Assembly (NCBI GenBank): GCA_963806185.1
Contig: CAWDXE010000003.1
Coordinates: forward strand, 276,619-340,618
Direction of reading: 5' to 3'
Length of the DNA stretch: 64,000 nucleotides
From: an uncultured candidate division Zixibacteria bacterium
GTDB taxonomy: Bacteria; Zixibacteria; MSB-5A5; GN15; FEB-12
Shown here: positions 1 to 6,405 of the stretch, piece by piece
Position numbering within the stretch: position 1 is the stretch's first letter
Layout of the letters: every line of letters starts with the position of its first letter
Program-made: the position numbers and the translations under genes
The notes under the pieces: model-generated
The model's database searches: none
Told to the model about the DNA's origin: nothing
Seen by the model: the letters and a program-made list of their open reading frames with translations, nothing else

Positions 1-542
1 CCCACGGAGGCCACCGATGCCGGATTGGTGCCATGTGCCGACTCGGGGATCAGGATCTTTGACCGATTTCGGCCCTTGTGCACATGATAGGCACGCATCA
101 CCAGAAGTCCGGCAAACTCGCCATGAGCGCCGGCTACCGGCTGAAGTGATATGTGCGGGAAGCCACTGACCTCGCTCAAGTACCGCTCCAGGTCCCACAT
201 TAACTGCAAACTTCCGGCCGAGGCCGAACAGGGGGTGAGCGGATGATGGTTGGCAAAGCCGCTATAGCTCGCCGCGACATCGTTGAGCTTCGGGTTATAC
301 TTCATCGTGCATGATCCGAGCGGATAGAAACCCTTGTCGATATGGTGATTCTTCACCGACATATTGACAAAATGGCGCATGACGGTCGGCTCGCTCACCT
401 CGGGGAGAGCCGCATCCTTGGCGCGACGGTATTTCTCCGGGATAGCGGAAAGAATATCCGCTTCGCCCTTCTTGGTCTCCGGCAAGGTGTACCCCTTCAA
501 TCCCGGGGCCGATTTTTCGTAAATCAAGATCTTTTCATTCAC
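1..542 (-). CDS. gcvPB: Glycine dehydrogenase (decarboxylating) subunit 2, N-terminal part; runs off the window
   Basis: Manual translation from GTG at 542 (GAGGA RBS): MNEKILIYEKS...GFYPLGSCTMKYNPK...SLQPVAGAHGE...PESAHGTNPAS, the standard GcvPB motifs. Confidence 0.95.
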   Translation of the reverse strand, partial: MNEKILIYEKSAPGLKGYTLPETKKGEADILSAIPEKYRRAKDAALPEVSEPTVMRHFVNMSVKNHHIDKGFYPLGSCTMKYNPKLNDVAASYSGFANHHPLTPCSASAGSLQLMWDLERYLSEVSGFPHISLQPVAGAHGEFAGLLVMRAYHVHKGRNRSKILIPESAHGTNPASVASV

Positions 543-581: not shown

Positions 582-1446
582 CTATTTCTTCTCATCCGCC
601 TTAGGCGGGTTCTTCCATTTCTCTATCTGTTTGGCGACCCATTCGATCTCATCCTTCTCATTCGGATAGCGCTCGGCGAACCCCTCGAAATGAGAGATCG
701 CTTTCGCCGTGTCGCCCATACGCACATACACGAGGCCAACCCATTCATCGGCATTCACGGCAAATGACGAGTTGGGAAAGTCCTTCAAGACGCCCTGGAA
801 CAACTCCAGTGCTTTATCATAGTTCTTCGCCCGGCGCTGCATGTCGGCGATGGCCATCCGACTTTCGCCCGCCAGAGAGTCCTTCTCATTGACCGCCACT
901 ACTCTGCTATACCAGGTCATCGCGTCGTCCGGCATGCCGCGATATTTGTACTTGTCCGCAATCTTGAACGCGAGCTCCCGGCTGGAGTCAGCCTTTGCTT
1001 TGCCCAGCAGGTCGTCGAGCGTGCCAACGCCGTTGCGGTAGTCCTTAATCGTTTGCAAGAACTCCGGTGGAGGCAAGTACCCGACGATCCGATCGATTTC
1101 ATTACCCTTGTTATCCATCAGAACAATGGTGGGATACGCGCTCACCCGATATTTCTGGGCGATTAGAGTATCCTTCTCGGCGTTAATCTTGGTCAGCACC
1201 GCCTCGTTCGAAAAGTAGCTGATATTGCTGGAGTCTACGAACACGACCGTGTCCATCACCTTGCACCAGCTTCACCACTCGGTGAAAAACTTCAAGGCCA
1301 TCGGCTGGTTTGCCTGTGCCGCCGCCTTCAGTCCCTCTTCATATGAAGTATAGTATTGCGCTTTGCCGGCTGTGTTGACCAATTCGGCTGTCGCCGTTCC
1401 GGCGAGCAGAAGTGTCGCCAGAGTCACTAATCCCGGTCGTCCGCAT
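582..1446 (-). CDS. Exported thioredoxin-like (UxxC) + TPR protein; putative selenoprotein
   Basis: ORFs 1272..1511 and 582..1259 join in frame across TGA 1272-1274 (KFFTEW-TGA-SWCKVMDT). AGGAGG + ATG at 1446 gives MRTTG.. if one extra base near 1432-1434 is removed. Corrected length is 287 aa versus 288 aa for the adjacent paralog. Confidence 0.8.
1227..1270 (-). promoter_or_regulatory. Candidate bacterial SECIS stem-loop
   Basis: Starting 18 nt after the TGA: GGACAC-GGUC-GUGUUC hairpin (1254-1239), with a lower GCUGG/CCAGC stem (1270-1266 / 1231-1227). The Cys paralog has GGACACCGUGACAUUG here, which cannot form this stem. Confidence 0.7.
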
Positions 1447-1513: not shown

Positions 1514-2380
1514 TTACGACTTCTTGGCGTCCGCCGGTGCCGGCGGATTCTTCAGTTTGTCGATCTGTTTCTTGACGTACCCGATTTCTTCCGAATTCGG
1601 ATACTTGGTCAGGAACGACTCCATCTGCTGTACTGCCGCTGTCGTGTCGCCCTTTTTCACCAGAACGAGGCCGATCCAGATATCGGCGTTTTCGGCAAAC
1701 GGAGTACCAGCGAAATCGGTGGCCATGGCGCGGAAGGCGCTGAGGGCACCGTCATAGTCTCTCTTCTGGCGAAACATCTCGGCCAGCGCCATCCGGCTCT
1801 CCCCGGCCAGCGAATCCTTTTCGTTGCCGGTGATCACCGTCTGATACCATTTCTTCGCATCAGTTTCGGCGCCGCGGTATTTGTACTTTTCCGCGATCTG
1901 AAACGCCAGATTGCGGTCGGCATTCGTCTTGGTCTGATTCAACAGGTCATCGAGCGTTCCTTTGCCGGCCCGGTAATCCTTCACCGTCTGCAGAAAGTCG
2001 GTCGGCGGCAGGTAGCCGACGATGCGGTCGATCTCGTTTCCCTTGCCGTCGACCAGGACGACTGTCGGATAGACGTTGACCGCATACTTCCTGGAGATCA
2101 GAGTATCCTTCTCCGCATTGGTCTTAAACATGACCATGTCGTTTGTGAAGTAGGCGATGTTATTGGCCTCTACCAATGTCACGGTGTCCATGACCTTGCA
2201 CCAGCTGCACCAGTCCGTGTAGAACTTGATGGCGATAGGCTGATTCTTTTGGGCTGCGGCCGTCATGGCCTCATCGAGATTGGTGTAATAGGGTGCGTGT
2301 CCGGGTTCGGAAACAAGTTCGGCCGATGCCGCACAGCAGAAGGTGAGCATCACCAGCAGAACCAGTGTCAACGTACGCAT
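1514..2380 (-). CDS. Exported thioredoxin-like (WCSWC) + TPR protein
   Basis: Signal peptide, KFYTDWCSWCK thioredoxin motif, YPT cis-Pro loop, IVGYLPP, and helical TPR/YbgF-like C-terminus. Confidence 0.9.
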   Translation of the reverse strand: MRTLTLVLLVMLTFCCAASAELVSEPGHAPYYTNLDEAMTAAAQKNQPIAIKFYTDWCSWCKVMDTVTLVEANNIAYFTNDMVMFKTNAEKDTLISRKYAVNVYPTVVLVDGKGNEIDRIVGYLPPTDFLQTVKDYRAGKGTLDDLLNQTKTNADRNLAFQIAEKYKYRGAETDAKKWYQTVITGNEKDSLAGESRMALAEMFRQKRDYDGALSAFRAMATDFAGTPFAENADIWIGLVLVKKGDTTAAVQQMESFLTKYPNSEEIGYVKKQIDKLKNPPAPADAKKS

Positions 2381-2411: not shown

Positions 2412-2787
2412 TCATTCTTCGTCTTCGTCCATCAGTCCTTCGCCCAGAACCGCATCAAGAATCGCCTCGGCGTCGTCACGGAACTCCCGGGGAACCAGAA
2501 CGGCCTGCCCGAACAGCGTTTGCTGGGGGAGCATCGGCGGCCGTGCTCTGTCCGCTATTGGCGAACTGGGCGGAGAGAATCATGCAAGGGATGTTGCTGG
2601 CGGTGAGGGCGTCGCGGGCTATGCCGGTTTGCACGTCATTGACCATGAACCCAACCTCGACCCAGGAGTCATCGGGAATGATCGCCGCCGTCTGGCGTGG
2701 TGACCGCTCCACCAACGGTCGATGGCACTCCGGACAGGTCATGAGACCGGCCTGATATTCATGGGAACATTGGGTGCAATATACCAT
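2412..2787 (-). CDS. Zinc-ribbon + DUF2007-like (PII-like fold) protein, frameshifted
   Basis: MVYCTQC...CPEC N-terminus. The C-terminus continues in another frame after the G-run near 2525-2529 (VLVPREFRDDAEAILD...EE*). Paralog of the next ORF. Confidence 0.65.
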
Positions 2788-2792
2788 CGACT

Positions 2793-3140
2793 TTACTCTT
2801 CCTTGGGCTGCCACTGCTCGCCGAGGGCCATGGCCAACAGCTCTTCAGCTTCCTCGGCTTGATCGGCCGGAACTGACACTTCAAACGCCGCCGATTCGCT
2901 GCGATAGATCGGGTTGAGCGGTAATCCGGCATTGCCGAAAAAGCCCGATCGCGACATCACAACGTTTGGTATCTCATACGAGGTCAGCACTTCACGGGCA
3001 AAATCGGCCGAGAATTTGTCCAATACGTATCCCAGCACAATCCACCCTTGTTCTTCACTATCGTCCATCGCCGTCCCGCAGACGTGACATGTGGTCGTCC
3101 CTTCTCGCCATTCGTTCTTACAGGCGGGACAAGACACCAT
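2793..3140 (-). CDS. Zinc-ribbon + DUF2007-like protein
   Basis: CPAC...CHVC, then A(D)FAREVLTSYEIP and EVSVPADQAEEAEELL, a typical DUF2007 pattern. Confidence 0.7.
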   Translation of the reverse strand: MVSCPACKNEWREGTTTCHVCGTAMDDSEEQGWIVLGYVLDKFSADFAREVLTSYEIPNVVMSRSGFFGNAGLPLNPIYRSESAAFEVSVPADQAEEAEELLAMALGEQWQPKEE

Positions 3141-4477
3141 TGTGCGCCAACTCCTTCAAGCCAACGACCAGGCGCGCCACATCGCCCGCAGTGCGCTTCT
3201 CGGTGGTCGCAACTATGAGACAATTCTCCAGACCAGGATACCAACGCCCGGCGTCGATTCCGGGCAGAATCTTCTTATCGCGAATCATTGCCAGGATAAC
3301 CTGCTCCGCGGGGACGGGGGTCCTCACCGCAAACTCCCTGACAAACGGCCCTTTGAAGTACAATTCGAAGCCATCCAGCTTGCCAATGTCCTTCGCTGCA
3401 TTCTGGGCGGCCTCGGCAGATAACAGGGCGACCTGCTTCAGCCCGGTCTTGCCCAGTAGGCTCATGTAGACGGACGCGGCGGTCGCACACAGAGCCTGAT
3501 TGGTGCAAATATTGGAGGTCGCCTTTTCGCGACGGATATGTTGTTCTCGAGTTTGCAGGGTCAGCACGAATCCGGTCTTGCCGTCTACGTCCTTGGTGCG
3601 TGCGGCCAGCCTTCCCGGCATCATGCGGACCAGCTCTTTCTTGATGGCAAAGAAACCAAGGAGGGGACCGCCGTACGATGGCGAAATGCCCAATGGCTGT
3701 CCTTCACCAAATGCGATGTCAGCACCGCAGTCAGCCGGCGTCTTGAGAATCGCCTGAGCGATCGGGTCAACGCTCATGATCAACTTGGCACCCACCTTGT
3801 GAGTGATGGTGGCGACTCGATCTATTTCCTCCAGCAGGCCAAAGAAGTTCGGCTGGCCGATCAGTACGCAGGCTGTGTTCTCATCCACCGCGTCTTCCAG
3901 TCGATTCAGATCAGTCAGACCGTCTTTCATCGGGACAGTCAGGATCTCAAACGGGCGGGCGGACAAATAGGTGTCAATGACCTGCCGATAGACCGGATTG
4001 ACGGTTGCCGATACGACAATTTTCTTGCGCCGCGTCACGGCATGGGCCAAAAGAACCGCCTCGGCCGAAGCCGTTGCCCCGTCGTAAAGCGAAGCATTGG
4101 CGATATCCATGCCGGTCAGCCGGCAAATATGAGTCTGGAATTCATAGATCGCCTGCAACGTGCCCTGCGCGACTTCAGGTTGGTAGGGCGTGTAGGCAGT
4201 CATGAACTCGGGGCGACCGATGATCGTGGCTAGCGCCGCAGGAATAAAATGATCATATACGCCGCCGCCGGCAAAACAGGTCAGCCCGCGTCTGGTTCTG
4301 CTCCGAAAGTTGCTTGATTTCATCGAGCAATTCCATTTCGGACAGAGCCGGTATGTTCAGGGAACGATCGAGACGCAGATTCCCGGGAATCGCCTCAAGC
4401 AAGTCCTCGAACTTCTTGACGCCGATCCGGCCGAGCATCTGCTGACGGTCCCGATCGGAACTCGAGATAAAGGCCAT
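3118..4477 (-). CDS. gcvPA: Glycine dehydrogenase subunit 1 (one frameshift near 4300)
   Basis: FAGGGVYDH, TAYTPYQPEVAQG, NASLYDGA, TLQTREQHIRREKATSNICTNQ. The N-terminus MAFISSSDRDRQQML is in ORF 4253..4477. Confidence 0.95.
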
Positions 4478-4539: not shown

Positions 4540-4925
4540 TTAGTGTTCTGCCACTAACTTCTTGTAACTGTCAGCCGTAAGCAATTGTTCTACTTCAGCG
4601 CGGTTGGCCACCTCGACTTTGATCATCCACCCGGAGCCATACGGATCCCGGTTGACGACCATTGGATCGCCGTCAAGTGCGGAGTTGATTTCGATCACGC
4701 GACCGGCCACCGGAGCATACATCTCCGATACCGCCTTGACCGCTTCAATGGTGCCGAAATCTCCCCATCTGTGCTCACCTGGTCGCCGATGCCCGGCAAT
4801 TCGATGAACACAATATCTCCCAGTTCTTTCTGGGCAAAATCGGTGATGCCGATGGTTGCGGTATTGCCAGTCACGCGCACCCATTCGTGCTCCTTGGTGT
4901 ACCTCAGCTCAGATGGAATATTCAC
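4540..4925 (-). CDS. gcvH: Glycine cleavage system H protein (one frameshift near 4765)
   Basis: [19 protein letters not shown], and lipoyl-lysine motif IEAVKAVSE, split over two ORFs. Confidence 0.95.
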
Positions 4926-4967
4926 GAAACGCCTCCTCGACTATCAGAATCGGTAATGGTCTGCATT

Positions 4968-6405
4968 TCAGCTTCCGGCCCTGTGGTCGCTGTCACTCCC
5001 GGGTGCTTGCTCCCCTTTTTTTTTAAGGGTGACGGCCGTTTTCGGGGCCGGCAGCACCACTTTCTGGAAATGTGTCTCAACAAAAGAGGTGTCATACTTG
5101 CCGGCAACGAAATCAGGGTCCTGGAGTATCTGCTTGTGGTATTCGATGGTCGTTGGCACGCCCTGGACTACAAATTCGTCGAGCGCATGCCGCATTTTCA
5201 TGATCGCTTCCGGCCGTGTCCGCGCCCGAACTATCAGCTTGGCGATCATCGAATCGTAGTACGGCGGAATCACATACCCGGCGTAGATGGCCTTGTCGAC
5301 CCGCACGCCCGGTCCGCCCGGAATGTGCATCGCCTCGATGCGGCCAGGGCCGGGACGGAAATCATGTTCCGGATCTTCGGCATTGATCCGACATTCGATG
5401 GCATGCCACTTGGGCTGTCAATTCGGCCTGGTTGAATTCGATCTTCTCGCCCAGCGCGACCCGGAACTGCTCGCGGACCAGGTCGACCTCGTACGCTTCT
5501 TCGGTAATCGGGTGCTCGACCTGGATACGCGTGTTCATCTCCATGAAGTAGAAACTGCCGCTCTCGTCGACCAGGCACTCGATCGTGCCGACGCCGAGAT
5601 AACCGATCGACCGGCAGGCCAATAGCGCTGCCTCACCCATCCGCTGACGCAGTTCCGTCGGTCATGAGCGGCGACGGCGTTTCCTCGATCAGCTTCTGGT
5701 GGCGACGCTGGATCGAGCAATCGCGCTCGCCGAAGTGATAGTAGTTGCCGTGCTTGTCGCCGATCACCTGGATTTCGATGTGATGCGGATTGACGATGAC
5801 CTTTTCGAGATACAGATCGGGATTGGAGAAGGCATTGGCTGCTTCGGTCGAGGCGATATGGAAAGCCGCGTTCGAGTTCGGACACATCGCGACAGACGCG
5901 CATCCCCTTGCCGCCGCCGCCGGCGACCGCTTTGAGAATCACGGGATATCCGACTTTCTCGGCGATCTCGGATGCTTCTTCAAAAGTGGCGACCTTGCCG
6001 TCGGATCCGGGTATCACCGGTACGCCCGCTTTGCGCATGGTCTCTTTGGCCGCGATCTTGTCCCCCATGGTGCGAATCTGCGTCGGGCGTCGGGCCGATA
6101 AAGGTAATGCCGCAAGATTCGCAGATTTCGGCAAAGTCGGCGTTTTCGGCCAGGAAACCATACCCGGGGTGAATTGCGCCGGCGTTGCAGACTTCGGCCG
6201 CCGAGATGATTCGCTTGAAATCCAGATATGACTGGGAGGAGGCGGGCGGACCGATGCAGACGTCTTCATCGGCAAATCGGACGTGCAGGGCATCGCGATC
6301 GGCTTCGGAATAGACGGCCACCGTCGCGAGGCCCAGTTCCCGGCAGGCGCGAATGATACGTAGGGCGATTTCGCCGCGATTGGCAATCAATACTTTGTTA
6401 AACAA
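4968..6405 (-). CDS. accC: Acetyl-CoA carboxylase biotin carboxylase subunit (several frameshifts)
   Basis: [57 protein letters not shown] and [10 protein letters not shown] in consecutive frame fragments. Confidence 0.95.

Follow-up and report, generated by a model that had tools for sequence, protein, structure and literature searches.

A conserved SECIS-type hairpin follows an in-frame UGA in a predicted exported thioredoxin gene of Zixibacteria

Results

We conclude with high confidence that the hairpin located +17 to +34 after an in-frame TGA in a thioredoxin gene of an uncultured Zixibacteria bacterium is a canonical bacterial SECIS element, one that would make the ribosome read the UGA as selenocysteine (Sec). 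The window, the whole 64,000-nucleotide stretch of DNA that was analysed, contains this gene, a tandem paralog with cysteine at the same position and the neighbouring genes listed in Table 1. An earlier note on this DNA had placed a GGACAC(GGUC)GUGUUC hairpin 18 nt past the TGA, and it is indeed found at +18 to +33 (1254-1239, minus strand). The note regarded this hairpin as independent evidence for recoding. That conclusion holds, but one hairpin, one paralog and a lower stem were insufficient alone to carry it.

Table 1. Features of the window in and around the TGA-containing gene; plus-signed positions are counted from the TGA
Feature	Position	Strand	Description
Host gene	582..1446	minus	Predicted signal peptide, thioredoxin domain (UxxC) and TPR helices
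In-frame TGA	1274-1272	minus	First Cys position of the thioredoxin CxxC (W-U-S-W-C); predicted selenocysteine codon
Conserved hairpin, predicted SECIS	1238..1255	minus	+17 to +34; 7-bp stem U-G-G-A-C-A-C / G-U-G-U-U-C-G
Apical loop GGUC	1245..1248	minus	+24 to +27; G25-U26 is the predicted SelB contact
Lower-stem 5' arm GCUGG	1266..1270	minus	Not conserved, probably incidental
Lower-stem 3' arm CCAGC	1227..1231	minus	Not conserved
Tandem Cys paralog	1514..2380	minus	W-C-S-W-C, TGC at 2209-2207; 60% identical; hairpin lost (2189-2174)
gcvPB start	3..542	minus	Directly downstream; NF003346 match, E 1e-66 on the partial gene
Glycine cleavage P-protein gene, gcvPA by position and size	3118..4323	minus	Upstream; PF02347

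Predicted protein and genomic context

The TGA closes a 79-codon frame, and the same frame then runs on to the end of the gene at 582; the gene body of 267 codons contains no other stop. Reading through the TGA yields the UxxC motif of Table 1, aligned with the CxxC of the tandem paralog. The protein has its best Pfam matches, above cut-off, to PF13098 and PF00085 and also matches PF13174, with the thioredoxin domains preceding the TPR repeats, and its AlphaFold model (pLDDT 96.5) consists of a thioredoxin fold plus a helical array. In this model the UxxC motif starts the helix that follows the strand at 29-34. Both positions of the CxxC motif are invariant in the alignment of Cys genes. By a crude test, a hydrophobic N-terminal stretch is present in 103 of the 105 genes with a recognisable start (122 examined), and for this reason export of the protein is predicted; a lipobox-like pattern occurs in 37 genes. 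The predicted product is an exported UxxC thioredoxin with TPR repeats; it likely works as a thiol-disulfide oxidoreductase in the envelope, with the TPR helices serving to hold client proteins.

Among 40 loci from relatives, gcvPA is present in 39 and gcvPB in 38, and a functional link between an exported protein and glycine cleavage is unlikely. The thioredoxin genes are separated from gcvPA by two small ORFs with CxxC pairs (2476-3140, minus strand), one of which weakly matches DUF2007; matches to the two occur at 26 and 37 of the 40 relatives' loci.

Homologues were recovered from all 121 sampled genomes of the phylum, a count in which the weak matches may be other thioredoxins. Gene callers often shorten the gene to a "TPR protein": among the homologues listed from public gene calls, 57 of 120 are 235 aa or shorter and have no CxxC. 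The source organisms named for close homologues point to Zixibacteria. A search for related loci returned distant homologues only, with 23-39% identity and mostly from Bacteroidota.

Folding of the single sequence

The minimum free energy (MFE) fold of 1227-1274 has an energy of -16.3 kcal/mol and pairs GCUGG with CCAGC in the way that the earlier note had drawn. This energy lies within the range expected by chance (z -1.85, equalled by 11 of 200 shuffles), and the corresponding 48 nt of the paralog fold equally well (-16.8, z -2.23), but into other hairpins. Folding both paralogs, which the note had proposed as a check, does not separate them, and we rejected single-sequence folding as proof of a SECIS, given that the TGA and Cys copies score alike. 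Loose SECIS-like hairpins are frequent by chance in this genome, with 488 matches in a scan for GG loops and 332 candidates in a motif-plus-hairpin scan. Since such hairpins are common and shuffled sequences fold as well, one sequence cannot decide the question. The exact 12-nt hairpin core occurs once in the whole genome.

Taken by itself, the hairpin has an MFE of -7.5 kcal/mol for +16 to +35 and -8.6 for +12 to +39 (consensus -7.95), while the six-pair core alone has -5.2 kcal/mol. The pair probability of the hairpin in the mRNA of this genome is 0.99-1.0 in five of the eight folding windows tested. A competing fold wins in some windows, the hairpin probability being 0.01 (+13 to +72), 0.54 (+13 to +100) and 0.14 (+13 to +150).

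Conservation and covariation among TGA genes

The gene was found in 106 of the 108 genomes of the family. The family search gave 111 matches; after removal of three that miss the site and two that were not retrieved, 106 rows were left, and one short row was excluded from the trees. The codon at the site is TGA in 66 of the 106 genes, TGC in 23 and TGT in 17, and nothing else occurs there. Failure of the hairpin to be conserved among TGA orthologs is what the earlier note had named as evidence against its own reading, and the opposite was found: the GGUC loop and all six stem pairs from 18:33 inward are present in 66 of 66 TGA genes. The pairs themselves vary. Pair 18:33 is G-C in 42 TGA genes, C-G in 22, U-A in one and U-G in one, and pair 21:30 is C-G in 61, U-A in three and U-G in two; pair 17:34 forms in 64. 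Over the 63 distinct rows, 99.5% of the 441 cells of the 7-bp stem are paired, and 26 changes are double-sided. The covariation check across orthologs that the note had called for gave a score of 0.248 versus 0.127 for shuffled alignments, with none of 500 shuffles as high and slid-partner controls at or below 0.077. RNAalifold predicts the same hairpin from the TGA genes and no other structure. The alignment is gap-free, the UGA-to-loop spacing is constant at 23 nt and the SECIS of this genome is identical to the consensus of the family. When the trait columns are left out of tree building, the state of pair 18:33 still switches 6-7 times, and it is therefore not a single inherited event.

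Synonymous sites are frozen only inside the hairpin. Three of the 55 four-fold columns fall within it and are 95-100% fixed; the other 52 are fixed at 30-70%. Outside the hairpin, ACG and GTC account for 28% and 32% of usage in the same genes, whereas inside it each is found in 66 of 66. The 18:33 swap in addition ties the wobble base of one codon to a Phe/Leu change five codons off. This freezing of synonymous sites in the hairpin alone, together with the compensatory changes, bears out the note's proposal of selection for the structure. Its lower GCUGG/CCAGC stem fared differently: although present and paired in the MFE fold here, it has all five pairs in only 2 of the 66 TGA genes, with 44.1% of cells paired, and we rejected it as part of the element.

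Cys genes and Sec/Cys changes

At the aligned site the paralog reads GACACCGTGACATTG, from which the hairpin cannot form (pair probability 0.0), as the earlier note had stated. The note's further view, that the contrast lies in codon choice over a shared MDTV, needs correction: besides synonymous codons, two amino acids differ between the paralogs inside the hairpin (DTVVF versus DTVTL). Its restriction of the hairpin to the TGA copy is true in this genome but not across the family, where 5 of 40 Cys genes keep it intact. Several other Cys genes have a GUU loop or a C-A mismatch, GTT and GTA arise by drift in those whose peptide is the same, and the two comparable four-fold sites drop to 55% and 43% fixed. 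A probability above 0.5 for the central pair is reached in 53 of 66 TGA genes versus 9 of 40 Cys genes.

The trees imply 24-25 changes of Sec/Cys state in the family. In them the TGA and Cys copies of this genome are sisters nested among TGA genes, with moderate support (SH-aLRT 81, not starred). Eight well-supported, phylogenetically independent pairs were available; five agree with the prediction, none goes against it and three are uninformative (p 0.0625). One origin of the hairpin followed by repeated loss is favoured, because the hairpin is identical across TGA genes and remnants persist at Cys tips, from which we infer the direction of change.

Further tandem duplicates consist of a TGA plus a TGT copy (genome G016), two Cys copies (G047) and a Cys copy plus a partial one (G066). 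Genome G003, which is 85% complete, has a Cys gene with an intact hairpin and a selD that keeps its TGA; selA, selB and tRNA-Sec were not found in this assembly, probably because of a gap.

TGA genes of other families

In family f3 the corresponding position is taken by another invariant hairpin, UCGAUAC(CGUGAC)GUAUCG, shared by all 12 of its TGA genes and kept by one of its two Cys genes; it retains G-U at +25/+26. G25-U26 is found in 0 of 4 TGA rows of family f2 and in 0 of 18 motif-matched rows from 10 more distant families (20 loci; 17 TGA, 1 TGC). The TGA is thus kept in distant families without G25-U26, and the exact element is therefore not universally needed. Five distant genomes were checked for the Sec machinery, with selD and tRNA-Sec present in all five and selB in four.

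By eye, several of the genes in f2 and the distant families have stems with G-free loops such as CUCAAC. In the two f10 genes a loop that starts with G seems to lie at +37, with one U-G/C-G change, and the three f7 genes have a common hairpin with its loop at +12, again by eye. We regard the structures of f2 and the distant families as candidate non-consensus SECIS elements. The f2 SelB is 20-35 residues longer than that of other families, with insertions both before and within the winged helices and a longer tail.

Selenocysteine machinery

In the genome under study selA adjoins selB, selD contains one in-frame TGA and a single tRNA, with a UCA anticodon, scores above the tRNA-Sec cut-off. 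SelB has a SelB-wing_3 domain and matches solved SelB winged-helix chains. Searches of 41 genomes of the order recovered selA from 40, selB from 40 (38 of them above cut-off), selD from 39 and tRNA-Sec from 37. Inspected by eye, the base at +21 of selD in these genomes is G in all 27 TGA rows and C in the single Cys row; this G is the wobble base of five different codons and lies inside a hairpin loop in most folds.

A G follows the acceptor stem of the tRNA-Sec of this genome, as it does in all 31 tRNA loci inspected by eye, and we take it to mark serine/Sec identity. In the same by-eye inspection the acceptor stem apparently has seven pairs and one bulged base in its 5' strand (31 of 31 loci); tRNA-Sec of a short-stem type exists. 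Molybdopterin enzymes, FlpD/MvhD and peroxiredoxins were searched for as families, and none of the matches contains a TGA; SelD is therefore the only other selenoprotein seen in the genome. A dicodon scan of the genome for further selenoproteins was swamped by antisense frames and gave nothing usable among the matches listed, and nor did the motif-plus-hairpin scan among the 226 listed of its 332 candidates.

Discussion

Proposed mechanism and alternative explanations

On the model given in the accessible text of a 2006 survey (PMC1794560), SelB-GTP with Sec-tRNA would bind the hairpin loop while the ribosome holds the UGA. Judging from biochemical work on E. coli and Moorella, SelB would contact the G-U of the loop through its last winged helix and deliver Sec-tRNA to the paused ribosome. 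Sec would then become the attacking residue of an envelope oxidoreductase. After the local duplication one copy likely changed from UGA to UGC, whereupon selection on the RNA would have lapsed and the hairpin been lost from that copy.

An unlikely, though not negligible, alternative accepts the SECIS as real but inherited: the TGA copy in this genome would be a pseudogene decaying since the duplication, and the Cys copy the working gene. It draws on the complete Cys paralog next door and on the start of the gene, where ATG 1446, preceded by a strong AGGAGG ribosome site (1456-1451), stands one base off the frame of the gene body; the equivalent distance in the paralog is exactly 57 codons. Four runs from public read sets, which share at most 9% of words, gave short pieces, none of which spans the start region and none of which crosses the TGA at high identity. 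The frameshift is nevertheless likely an assembly error, because housekeeping genes in the same assembly are broken likewise: the biotin carboxylase gene (4540-6405) is split into four within the window, and the two EF-Tu-like loci are fragmented as well (G000:C4 310559-327578). A gcvH match is without its N-terminal part, and the assembly seems to contain many indel errors. The otherwise open body and a SECIS identical to the family consensus also speak against decay, as does the body frame, which is open upstream to an in-frame ATG at 1511. An error-prone assembly, and the splitting of the gene by public gene callers, could be held to mean that the TGA itself arose by sequencing error or is a real stop dividing the gene, an idea to which we attach practically no weight. 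A sequencing error is excluded by the occurrence of TGA in 66 genes of many genera, with the Sec machinery present. A true stop is at odds with a site that admits only TGA, TGC and TGT, and with an upstream piece that by itself would be a signal peptide and half a thioredoxin fold.

The hairpin could also be incidental, its conservation reflecting protein constraint on DTVVF/L plus shared ancestry, with the real signal elsewhere. The peptide does fix the first and second codon positions, kin are not independent, the paired test falls short of significance and distant families retain the TGA without a GGUC-type loop. Protein constraint is however unable to fix wobble bases, as seen in the invariant ACG and GTC, or to couple a wobble base with the Phe/Leu change through the 18:33 swap, and Cys genes of the same peptide are free to drift; we consider this explanation very improbable. 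Much the same low probability attaches to a working SECIS at which SelB delivers a tRNA-ReC (SelC*) that decodes the UGA as cysteine, leaving no selenium in the protein. tRNAs of this type exist and use SECIS elements, according to the accessible text of PMC13582414, and cysteine is tolerated at the site in 40 of the 106 family genes. Against this stand the UCA anticodon and the G after the acceptor stem in the sole tRNA that passes the tRNA-Sec cut-off, as well as the presence of selA and of a selD that itself carries a TGA.

Implications

The element itself is textbook; it is the TPR-bearing, exported Zixibacteria form of the UxxC thioredoxin that was not found in the literature searched. 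The 66 natural variants define the SECIS positions that matter, namely the 7-bp stem, the GGUC loop and the fixed distance, with no lower stem, and reveal a constraint of such strength that a wobble base and a Phe/Leu change are coupled. The Cys genes display stages of hairpin decay, which makes the direction of Sec/Cys change readable. The hairpin also flags a predicted exported selenoprotein family that annotation often shortens, and so has value as an annotation fix, while the distant families with UGA but no G at +25 offer test cases for non-consensus SECIS elements.

More tentatively, and with slightly more doubt than conviction, we propose that these genes form a subfamily of exported thioredoxin-TPR selenoproteins that extends throughout the phylum Zixibacteria, is as yet uncatalogued and is fixed beside gcvPA/gcvPB. 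One family of it would have replaced Sec by Cys some twenty times while retaining the Sec machinery, against the reported trend for thioredoxin-fold proteins. Between families the SECIS would have kept its place but exchanged its sequence, and in some lineages the same UGA appears to be recoded without the consensus G-loop, which if true would be a distinct SECIS class.

Comparison with known systems

Selenoproteins with a UxxC motif, both the "thiol:disulfide interchange protein" (PF13098) and thioredoxin (PF00085), are already catalogued in the accessible text of a review (PMC13188914). The present protein has the same Pfam domains and motif but differs in having a TPR domain and a predicted signal peptide or lipobox. 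The main text of that review contains neither "TPR" nor "Zixi", and the exported TPR-bearing UxxC form in Zixibacteria was found neither in the review text nor in literature searches; the titles and abstracts found do not describe the family. The main text of the BSepDB paper (PMC13326102) likewise has no "Zixi" or "TPR", though its database or supplements may list the genes under generic thioredoxin. A search for "Zixibacteria" with "selenocysteine" led to PMC8318568, which in its accessible text names the phylum only as a bin.

The protein stays below the cut-off of every NCBIfam model, those of the named selenoprotein families (TsoB and others) included, its best score being 59.8 bits versus 805 for NF045694. 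YbbN is cytoplasmic and is not known to contain Sec. A thioredoxin domain followed by TPR helices is also the arrangement of YbbN/CnoX, which gave the top Foldseek matches (PDB 3qou, 3qdn), but only this domain order is common to the two: identity is 14-15%, TM about 0.3 and rmsd above 20 Å, there is no whole-chain match, and the protein here has a predicted signal peptide.

Whole or decaying hairpins in Cys genes that sit among TGA genes resemble the remnant SECIS elements that follow a Sec-to-Cys change (PMC1794560, PMC13582414, accessible text of both). The 2006 survey (PMC1794560), as far as its accessible text goes, reported that no more than four families, mostly FdhA and SelD, had undergone Sec-to-Cys changes, compared with the 24-25 Sec/Cys changes seen here in one thioredoxin-fold family.

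The consensus bacterial SECIS, as set out in the accessible text of the review (PMC13188914), has a loop of 3-9 nt with G in its first two positions, mostly G-G or G-U, an upper stem of 4-16 bp, 16-37 nt between UGA and loop and an MFE of -7.5 kcal/mol or lower. The hairpin here agrees with all four constraints, with the energy only just within its limit; its loop is 4 nt long and its stem has seven conserved pairs, eight in this genome. Within the coding region it follows directly, on the 3' side, an in-frame UGA whose position is equivalent to Cys. The distant families with the same TGA have no G at +25 and may fit the non-consensus class described in the accessible part of that review. The earlier note drew a parallel with E. 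coli fdhF, and it was right that the fdhF loop contains GGUC. That loop starts at +19, five bases nearer the UGA than the loop at +24 here, and unlike fdhF the conserved stem here has no bulged base and is closed by C-G rather than A-U. The two-stem architecture of the E. coli type is also absent, the lower stem not being conserved. What the two elements have in common is a place in the coding region just 3' of the Sec UGA, a short upper stem and the GGUC loop.
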